Shown piece after piece: positions 5,993 through 7,000 of a stretch of DNA of 13,104 bases; the first letter of the stretch is position 1; each line of letters begins with the position of its first letter. The position numbers and the translations under genes were made by a program. The stretch comes from a virus. Its lineage: Duplodnaviria; Heunggongvirae; Uroviricota; Caudoviricetes. Where the stretch lies: positions 1 to 13,104 of IMG/VR virus record IMGVR_UViG_645058835_000001. The stretch is one strand, 5' to 3'. Under the pieces are notes generated by a model, which saw only the letters and a list, made by a program, of their open reading frames with translations, was not told the DNA's origin and made no database searches.

Positions 5993-7000
5993 GTGATGGC
6001 TTTGATTGCTTTGCTGTCTGTTGGCGGTTTTGCTTATATCGCTGAGATCGCAAAGAACACGCCAAGCGCCGCAAACATCGTTGCCTATGCAATGCAGGTT
6101 CGCGAAACCGCAATGGAACGCTACGCCATCAACCGCATGACTGAAGCGACGGAATTGCTCTATTCCCGCAACGGAATGACTGCAACGCAGAAGTACGAAG
6201 CTATTCAGGCGATTTTCACGCAACTGACAGACCATGCAAAAACCGGATCGCGTCGCGGCCTTCGCTCATTTGGCGAGGTCATGGAAGACTGGGTTAGCGA
6301 CCTTGAGAAGCGATTTGACCCGTCAGGCGAACAACGAGGAATGAGCACAGGTATCCCATCGCTGGACAGGATGCTGTCACCGAAAGGTCTGGTGAAAGGC
6401 TCTCTGTTTGTCATTGGCGCTCGCCCTAAGATGGGGAAAACGACGCTATACAGCCAGATGGCAATCAACTGCGCAGTTCATGAGAAAAAGCCCGCTCTGA
6501 TGTTCAGCCTTGAAATGCCAGGTGACCAGATACTGGAAAAACTGGTAGGACAGAAGTCAGGTGTTAACCCGAATATTTTTTACCTTCCGGCGACAAATGA
6601 CGCCGATGACGGCTATCAGGGTGATTACGATGGTGACTTCAACAGGGCGATCGAAACAGCTAATCGCTTGAGTGAAATCGACCTGCTTTACATCGACGAC
6701 ACGCCGGGATTATCTCTGGCTCAAATCGTCAGCGAAAGCCGTCGAATCAAGCGAGAAAAAGGATGCGTTGGCATGATTCTGGTCGATTATGGGACGGCAA
6801 TGAACCCGGCGACAACTGGCGCAGCAGTAAGCTACGGACTTCTTACTCGCGCCTATGAGAGCGAGCCATTCAGAAATGCAATGCTCCGAATGGCAAACAC
6901 ACCACGCGGATCAACAGCGTTTGAGAAAGCCATGCAGCAGGCGCAAAAGGCCATTAACTCCCTGGCGCAGGGGGCTAAGTCTGATGCGTTGTCAGAATAG
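5993..7000 (+). CDS. DnaB-family replicative helicase homologue, truncated at both ends relative to canonical DnaB (possible remnant)
   Basis: LSVGGFAYIAEIAKNTPSAANIVAYAMQVRE closely matches the E. coli DnaB N-terminal-domain segment SVGGFAYLAELSKNTPSAANISAYADIVRE (recalled from memory). Walker A GARPKMGKTT, ALMFSLEMPGDQI and Walker B GMILVDYG are present. The frame is closed by TAG immediately upstream of 5993, and no DnaB-like sequence follows the Walker B region. Confidence 0.6.
   Translation: MMALIALLSVGGFAYIAEIAKNTPSAANIVAYAMQVRETAMERYAINRMTEATELLYSRNGMTATQKYEAIQAIFTQLTDHAKTGSRRGLRSFGEVMEDWVSDLEKRFDPSGEQRGMSTGIPSLDRMLSPKGLVKGSLFVIGARPKMGKTTLYSQMAINCAVHEKKPALMFSLEMPGDQILEKLVGQKSGVNPNIFYLPATNDADDGYQGDYDGDFNRAIETANRLSEIDLLYIDDTPGLSLAQIVSESRRIKREKGCVGMILVDYGTAMNPATTGAAVSYGLLTRAYESEPFRNAMLRMANTPRGSTAFEKAMQQAQKAINSLAQGAKSDALSE

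Follow-up and report, generated by a model that had tools for sequence, protein, structure and literature searches.

An open reading frame resembling a short DnaB helicase is most probably a chimeric pseudogene in a decayed Escherichia coli prophage, and its helicase part ends at a recurrent breakpoint

How should an open reading frame be interpreted when it carries the nucleotide-binding motifs of a replicative helicase and lacks both of its ends? This question is raised by a tailed-phage sequence of 13,104 nucleotides (the whole of which is called the window here), in which a plus-strand frame of 335 codons occupies positions 5993–7000, with a GTG at 5993 and an ATG at 5996 directly behind an in-frame TAG at 5990–5992. 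An earlier note, made from the sequence alone, had rightly observed that the frame opens after a TAG, and it offered two readings: a recombination remnant, or a truncated helicase that still binds its partners and acts as a decoy. It is our conclusion, held with a probability of roughly 0.93, that the frame is a non-functional chimeric pseudogene in a decayed E. coli prophage. RefSeq already marks the helicase piece as a pseudogene; its PGAP annotation places that piece at window positions 6017–6803 as “missing N-terminus and C-terminus” and treats the neighboring erf piece as a pseudogene as well, while an older annotation lists the product as protein EGJ04193.1.

The frame is a chimera of three parts, and the positions of its junctions were set by base-by-base comparison with HK106, LR-03, Sf6, and VT2-Sakai. 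The first eight codons (5993–6015) run antisense to a truncated erf gene, as comparison at the base and protein level demonstrates. The following segment (6016–6789, plus strand) is the interior of a lambdoid/P22-like DnaB-type helicase gene, corresponding to nucleotides 245–1019 of 1437 and residues 83–339 of 478; these are the exact truncation points that the earlier note had suggested seeking by alignment to phage helicases. The remainder (6790–7000, plus strand) is the last 69 codons and the stop of a gp16-type DNA-transfer gene, an ejection gene with a lytic-transglycosylase domain, read in its native frame. At the first junction (6015–6017) the erf 3′ remnant meets helicase nucleotide 245 with a 1-bp overlap, T6016, and at the second (6788–6789) helicase nucleotide 1019 meets the gp16-type 3′ end with a 2-bp overlap, the shared TA. 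When the frame was searched by megablast against phage genomes, its sole match was 6016–6789, to helicase genes. The left flank (5431–6016) matches the SSB-like gene and erf 3′ end of HK97/HK106-type and Stx1a phages at 97.5–99.2%, and the right flank (6788–7400) matches the gp16-type 3′ end and Mnt region of IME10 and Sf6 at 97.2%. Profile searches divide the product in the same way: PHROG 19 (DnaB-like helicase) covers residues 10–270 and PHROG 770 (DNA transfer protein) covers residues 266–335 (E = 7e-23). The frame looks like a short helicase because the second join happens to be in frame and because a fortuitous GTG/ATG lies in the antisense erf sequence.

The origin of the central part is clear at both the DNA and the protein level. 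Positions 6016–6789 are 98.6% identical to Sf6 gene 44, 99.1% identical to the P gene of the Stx-phage VT2-Sakai, and up to 99.9% identical to a full-length prophage copy in E. coli Z1323CEC0012, from which they differ by one synonymous base; residues 9–265 of the frame are thus identical at 257/257 positions to residues 83–339 of that 478-aa helicase. Pfam finds an incomplete N-domain (residues 9–38, matching only profile positions 74–103 of 103) and only positions 1–143 of the 255 of DnaB_C (residues 116–272), positions 144–255 being absent. In alignment to solved structures, residues 7–271 correspond to 97–349 of the 471 residues of E. coli DnaB (E = 1.6e-37) and DnaB residues 1–96 have no counterpart, whereas the full-length relative aligns to DnaB 25–451. 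The earlier note was therefore correct that both ends of DnaB are missing, although its description of the start as near-identical to the DnaB N-domain hairpin was too strong: identity is high, at about 70%, across the first ~37 residues of the alignment. Both Walker motifs are there, GARPKMGKT (Walker A) aligning to GARPSMGKT of DnaB and MILVD (Walker B) to LIMID. Besides these two motifs, the fragment keeps motif H1a, the linker, and the final helix of the N-domain.

DnaB similarity ends after …ILVDY, and the structural alignment and Pfam agree with the note that no DnaB motif follows Walker B. What has been deleted are helicase residues 1–82, which make up most of the N-terminal domain, and residues 340–478, which hold H3, H4, and the arginine finger. 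In the full-length relative, the sequences that we take from established knowledge of DnaB to be these motifs, namely TQLNR (H3-type), SRDTGQIEQDCD (H4-type, TGQIEQDCD), and LNRHG (arginine-finger region), lie within residues 380–440, all in the deleted part. The context of the gene also differs from that in Sf6 and VT2-Sakai: an opposite-strand erf remnant lies upstream, and gene O, cro, and PR are absent. One could still ask whether the frame belongs, as a complete gene, to a family of helicases that are short by nature, and the open reading frame taken by itself would suit such a reading. Yet its helicase part is 100% identical in protein sequence to the interior of a 478-aa enzyme, homology breaks sharply at both ends (into antisense erf on one side and the gp16-type gene on the other), H3, H4, and the arginine finger are missing from the RecA fold, and the related elements carry the gene at full length in 87/87 phage records as well as in hundreds of E. 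coli genomes. A short family can on these grounds be excluded.

The sequence behind Walker B, which the earlier note had left without an assignment, can in fact be named. Residues 267–335 agree with the Sf6 gp13 C-terminus at 66/69 positions (66–67/69 across gp16-type C-termini) and are read in the native frame of that gene up to its native stop, and the DNA of 6790–7000 is 95.8% identical to the end of Sf6 gene 13. This tail has no ejection-protein function. Because its RecA fold stops right behind the Walker B strand and continues into an unrelated tail, the chimeric product is unlikely to fold or to form rings.

The two junctions truncate the neighboring genes as well. The erf remnant (5814–6016, minus strand) consists of the last 66 of 201 codons, its N-terminus having been deleted, and it abuts an intact phage SSB-like gene (5431–5814, minus strand; 127 aa, C-terminal DDSIPF; PHROG 44, E = 3e-27; a PGAP CDS) that sits downstream of it and has lost its PL promoter. 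The gap of about 40 bp that had been supposed between the frame and a divergent SSB operon does not exist as such, as the start of the frame lies inside the erf remnant. Directly to the right of the chimera is a Mnt/Arc-type repressor gene (7089–7382, minus strand; Pfam Arc and Repressor_Mnt; PGAP), which marks the immI/tailspike end of the ancestral phage.

The chromosomal site of the remnant provides the frame in which both junctions can be understood. In the chromosome of E. coli 357900 (NZ_CP038859.1) the window has a match of 100% identity over 5400–7500 and of 99.96% over its whole length, at a locus between the dsdA/csc genes and argW-yfdC-mlaA where intS adjoins the tRNA-Arg gene argW. 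The defective K-12 prophage KplE1/CPS-53 lies at argW, and its recombination module, common to HK620, Sf6, and CUS-3, uses a 16-nt core, CTGCAGGGGACACCAT (PMC2951348). Within the extended locus (L002) an exact copy of CTGCAGGGGACACCAT is found at the tRNA end (21866–21881) and a copy with one mismatch at 6862–6877, 15 kb from the tRNA copy and 1.7 kb left of the window; bounded by these two core copies, the remnant is about 15 kb long. Its genes follow the order ead, DUF5405, abc2, SSB, truncated erf, the helicase piece, the gp16-type end, mnt, HNH, tailspike, a Wzy-like gene, and int, which is colinear with an integrated Sf6/HK620-type genome, and each junction is therefore a simple deletion. 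The first deletion, put at about 4 kb by the Sf6 and HK106 maps, begins within erf, whose 5′ part it took away, and extends over kil, cIII, N, the immunity region, cro, cII, and gene O into the 5′ end of the helicase gene. The second, of about 22 kb, lost the 3′ third of the helicase gene together with nin, Q, the genes for lysis, and almost all those for virion proteins and morphogenesis. Between them, the two deletions cost the prophage its PL and PR promoters as well as the immunity region, gene O, and almost every late gene, and no torI/xis is annotated between the att cores of the remnant, whereas it is present at the same locus in LR-03.

Several genes of the remnant deserve a record of their own. 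A 208-aa serine recombinase (Resolvase family) and a 58-aa frame occupy L002 positions 6862–8124, 0.5–1.7 kb left of the window, inside the att-bounded island and at the expected place of torI/xis. A gene for a rolling-circle replication-associated protein (HUH, REP_ORF2-G2P; PHROG 30534, E = 2e-152) fills an early-left “ea” slot at 3189–4241 (minus strand) and occurs only in this lineage among about 140 lambdoid loci compared. Between mnt and the tailspike, at 7481–8020 (minus strand), stands a homing-endonuclease-like gene with HNH_3 and AP2 domains, which is missing there in Sf6 and in the LR-03 remnant. In the region 8033–11632 the tailspike joins a P22-type head-binding domain to an HK620-type C-terminal domain, and it is followed by a polytopic protein of 395–414 aa, named O-antigen polymerase (Wzy-like) by PGAP, in the slot of oac/gtr of the relatives.

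Could the junctions be artefacts of assembly or sequencing? Some sequence noise does exist at the locus, in that the window and RefSeq differ in the length of a homopolymer in another gene. The gene is the 826-aa SIR2-family gene at window 1–2482 (SIR2_2 with an nSTAND-like NTPase, defence-type), which one extra A splits: its A-runs near 1188–1202 read A7-C-A8 in the window (split), A6-C-A8 in RefSeq 357900 and in locus L008 (intact), and A6-C-A7 in L009 (split), differences that are either homopolymer sequencing errors or phase-variable lengths. On the other hand, a complete chromosome built from long reads, E. coli D9, and at least 24 independently assembled public runs all show the chimera's junctions in identical context, and an artefact is accordingly most improbable.

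The same data define the distribution of the chimera. Its exact product of 334/335 aa is found in E. coli D9 and in at least 50 contigs of public runs (NCBI, Logan, and ENA assemblies), the 24/24 contigs that were read have the same neighbors around it, and the 13-kb region is 99.96–99.99% identical among the members compared. Among 5,426 complete E. coli genomes, no further one has either junction. The chimera is an inherited scar in one clonal E. coli lineage and gives no leverage for a test of selection. At the same argW locus, LR-03 (L003) retains more of erf, more of the gp16-type gene, an extra 168-bp fragment, torI, and gtr, and has no helicase piece; it represents an independent decay of a related prophage.

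The make-up of the chimera, its two junctions, their colinearity, the chromosomal site, and the confinement to one lineage are all shown by these data, and the most probable history is as follows. In an E. coli ancestor, a temperate phage of the Sf6/HK620/KplE1 type entered the chromosome at argW, the tRNA-Arg gene. A first illegitimate, colinear deletion then joined the 3′ end of erf, in the leftward early operon, to helicase nucleotide 245. A second one fused helicase nucleotide 1019 to the final 210 bp of the gp16-type gene, in frame by chance, with the fortuitous GTG/ATG in antisense erf opening the 335-codon frame. If the product were made, it would lack most of the N-domain and the C-terminal third of the RecA fold, and would presumably perform neither ring ATP hydrolysis nor translocation. 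Deprived of PR, PL, repressor, gene O, and recombination directionality factor, the remnant is probably inert and is passed on vertically in one lineage. The reading as a recombination remnant that had been offered at the outset is thus strongly supported by the colinear deletion junctions, by the erf and gp16-type genes cut at the same joins, and by the RefSeq pseudogene call.

The decoy reading must be weighed against this history. It holds that the chimera is expressed and acts in a dominant-negative manner: with its remaining N-domain helix, linker helix, and half RecA domain it would capture primase, helicase subunits, or the O-type initiator when phages relying on the same helicase superinfect, and so poison their replication. 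The frame is indeed open for 335 codons, and a Shine-Dalgarno-like AGGTG stands 6 nt before the ATG at 5996, which means that a read-through transcript may be translated. Alignment to DnaB also indicates that the linker helix and the last N-domain helix are retained, and these elements of DnaB contact neighboring subunits; moreover, the SIR2-family gene gives the remnant a defence-like cargo. Nevertheless, a simple consensus scan of 5300–7500 found nothing resembling a plus-strand promoter, every gene within 3.5 kb upstream of the frame lies on the minus strand, and stable folding is doubtful for a RecA core that is cut after Walker B and carries a virion-protein tail. Two random-looking deletions, which also truncate the neighboring genes, fully explain the composition; a tail falls in frame by a 1-in-3 chance; and with the chimera limited to one near-clonal lineage, evidence of selection is absent. 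The promoter scan, the cut fold, the unrelated tail, and the single lineage leave the suggestion of a helicase decoy without supporting evidence, and we regard it as very unlikely. A function of any kind for the chimeric product is just as improbable, and we infer that the frame is neither expressed nor functional.

The pseudogene nevertheless leads to a broader observation, which concerns its right-hand junction. In the 90%-identity protein cluster that holds the frame, other truncated forms likewise end in …GMILVDY and then diverge. The breakpoint was surveyed by two protein searches, contig look-ups, complete genomes, and pattern scans, and at least 13 independent junction types with different partners were found at helicase nucleotides 1017–1021 (GATTA|CC, codon Y340, just after Walker B), where the sequence reads GGTCGATTACCTGAC; they were seen in loci L007, L010, L011, L018, L120, L131–L135, L137, L139, and L143. 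Several of the partner names that follow (Rz, NinI, ninF, and the integrase) are our own presumed recognitions of the sequences. In the window the partner is the gp16-type 3′ end; in ET776 it is a sequence upstream of a baseplate gene; in the P0004 type, represented by 216 contigs, a point just upstream of Q; in P0003/P0136, Rz; and in P0005, the P22 portal from profile position 223. P0137 continues into the antisense of an integrase-like gene, P0138 into the gene before DUF2824/gp7, P0139 into a lambda NinI-type phosphatase, and P0140 into a gp10-type stabilisation protein. Further partners are a sequence upstream of ninF (L137), one without assignment (L139), and a 35-nt fragment on a metagenome contig (L143), and in ETEC4070 the other side of the gene is kept, from nucleotide 1017, and joined to a fragment of the N gene. 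Some of the junctions known from single Logan contigs may in principle be assembly errors; at least 6 of the types are found in assemblies at NCBI, in isolate genomes of IMG, or in complete genomes.

Among the high-identity chimeras from the protein search, 8 break at codon 340 and 7 elsewhere between codons ~260 and 478 (at 282, 283, 316, 378, 416, and 425, together with one internal deletion). Control scans of the same design found no junction at nucleotides 939 or 1119 and none at the left junction of the window, and neither right-retained junctions nor the left junction (nucleotides 244/245) were found in IMG/VR by negated-base scans or in GTDB representatives. Intact partner parents were recovered for seven junctions, the gp10 one only as an 88%-identical allele, and all seven have TA directly left of the join, against a chance expectation of (1/16)^7. 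This TA mostly belongs to an imperfect match to the helicase sequence TCGATTA, for instance TCGATTAC in NinI, CGATTA in Rz, TCGGGTA in gp16, and GGCTTA before ninF. The other chimeras at the breakpoint carry out-of-frame or unrelated tails, which is one more argument against a decoy, and the recurrence therefore reflects mutation rather than selection for a product. Two further shared breakpoints were noticed in the family: one at helicase residues 282/283 in P0006 and P0141 (…NDADDG(Y)| joined to Q or to the gp16-type gene), and one at residue 121 in P0106 and P0109, an O-protein::helicase fusion (…RTFWRK|TAMERY) with two different O alleles. P0143 (299 aa, 348 member sequences) is a common frameshifted helicase allele which has apparently lost one T in a T-run, …AATATTTTTTACC…, near codon 271.

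What makes the gene break at this position? The right junction seems to lie at a true deletion hotspot, precise to the nucleotide, in a phage gene of very wide distribution, and the pattern fits a top-strand 3′ end at nucleotides 1019–1021 that annealed through its terminal bases and was then joined or extended. The recurrence of the site suggests that the second deletion in the window may likewise have begun at a site-specific DNA end and been joined through the terminal TA microhomology. A more far-reaching proposal, which we put forward tentatively and consider rather unlikely, is that DNA ends are generated at nucleotides 1017–1021 by a sequence-specific activity, and that many “dead” prophages, this one included, are its scars. 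Candidates for such an activity are a nuclease of a competing phage or of a defence system, Abc2-modified RecBCD stopping at the Chi-like TCTGGTCG, and a replication-arrest site.

A number of other causes were considered and set aside. The homing endonuclease of an intein does not match, since the intein of this family sits in the P-loop (GARPKMGK|T, residues 224/225) and not at residue 340. As regards that intein, the relatives P0026, P0025, P0072, and P0086 (817–821 aa) carry a LAGLIDADG intein of ~340 aa in the P-loop, GARPKMGK|AQPL…THN|TTLY, with Ala as its first residue; P0024 (660 aa) looks like the same intein minus its endonuclease domain, and one cluster of intein-bearing helicases has 449 member sequences. 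A mosaic boundary between helicase alleles was rejected on the 87/87 phage copies that align at full length with the internal break absent. The window's own rolling-circle Rep-like gene and the serine recombinase do not serve as a general cause, as neither is found at any other hotspot-junction locus; homologues of the HNH_3/AP2 gene (30–44% identical) occur in 13 other lambdoid loci compared, of which only L134 has the hotspot junction. The hairpin or cruciform at the site is weak and imperfect, with its loop from nucleotide 1020, and its folding energy is no better than that of shuffled sequences (z = −0.1 to −0.9). Chi is a weak candidate: TCTGGTCG has two mismatches to Chi and ends 4–6 nt before the break, and nine equally Chi-like octamers lie in the gene without a hotspot. 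Compared by eye, the breakpoint bears no convincing likeness to the ends of Tn5/IS10, to dif, Hin/Gin, or gamma-delta res sites, to the gyrase consensus, to the att core, or to the T-psi-C arm of tRNA. Literature searches on deletion hotspots and defective prophages yielded no description of a deletion hotspot in this prophage helicase gene.

Two consequences follow from the analysis. An open frame with Walker motifs in a cryptic prophage is not to be read as a short helicase or as an anti-replication decoy. Furthermore, one site of 3–5 nt is the start of many independent deletions that inactivate prophages, in a gene common to Sf6, HK620, HK022, Stx, and Salmonella P22-like phages; if it is true that a defined activity makes the end, this would offer a concrete and testable mechanism for the disabling and domestication of lambdoid prophages in enterobacterial genomes.

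It remains to compare the locus with known systems. The helicase class of Sf6 gp44, the “P” proteins of HK620, HK022, and VT2-Sakai, and P22 gp12 shares with the window the segment of Walker A, H1a, and Walker B; however, phage helicases such as Sf6 gp44 and VT2-Sakai P are full-length, whereas the piece in the window is without both ends, the upstream O gene, and PR, and has foreign sequence on both sides. In the same manner, the tail has the C-terminus of the gp16-type proteins (Sf6 gp13, P22 gp16), but amounts to only about 10% of their 665 aa. As a prophage, the remnant resembles KplE1/CPS-53, HK620, Sf6, and CUS-3 in its position at argW, with an IntS-type integrase beside the tRNA and the 16-nt core at both ends, and KplE1/CPS-53 and its relatives in the P22-like tailspike, the O-antigen-modifying slot beside int, and decay by internal deletions. 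It differs from KplE1 in the genes retained (abc2, SSB, Ead, Mnt, HNH, the HK620-type tailspike C-domain, and the Wzy-like gene) and in the torI/xis end, which has been replaced by the SIR2-family gene, the rolling-circle Rep-like gene, and the serine recombinase. Cryptic lambdoid prophages such as Rac, DLP12, and Qin, and induction survivors that lose replication and lysis genes, have likewise undergone large colinear deletions with 0–8 bp of junction homology that knock out replication and late genes and leave accessory genes behind; in contrast to such deletions, one endpoint in the window falls within 3 nt of the endpoints that at least 12 further independent deletions have in this gene.
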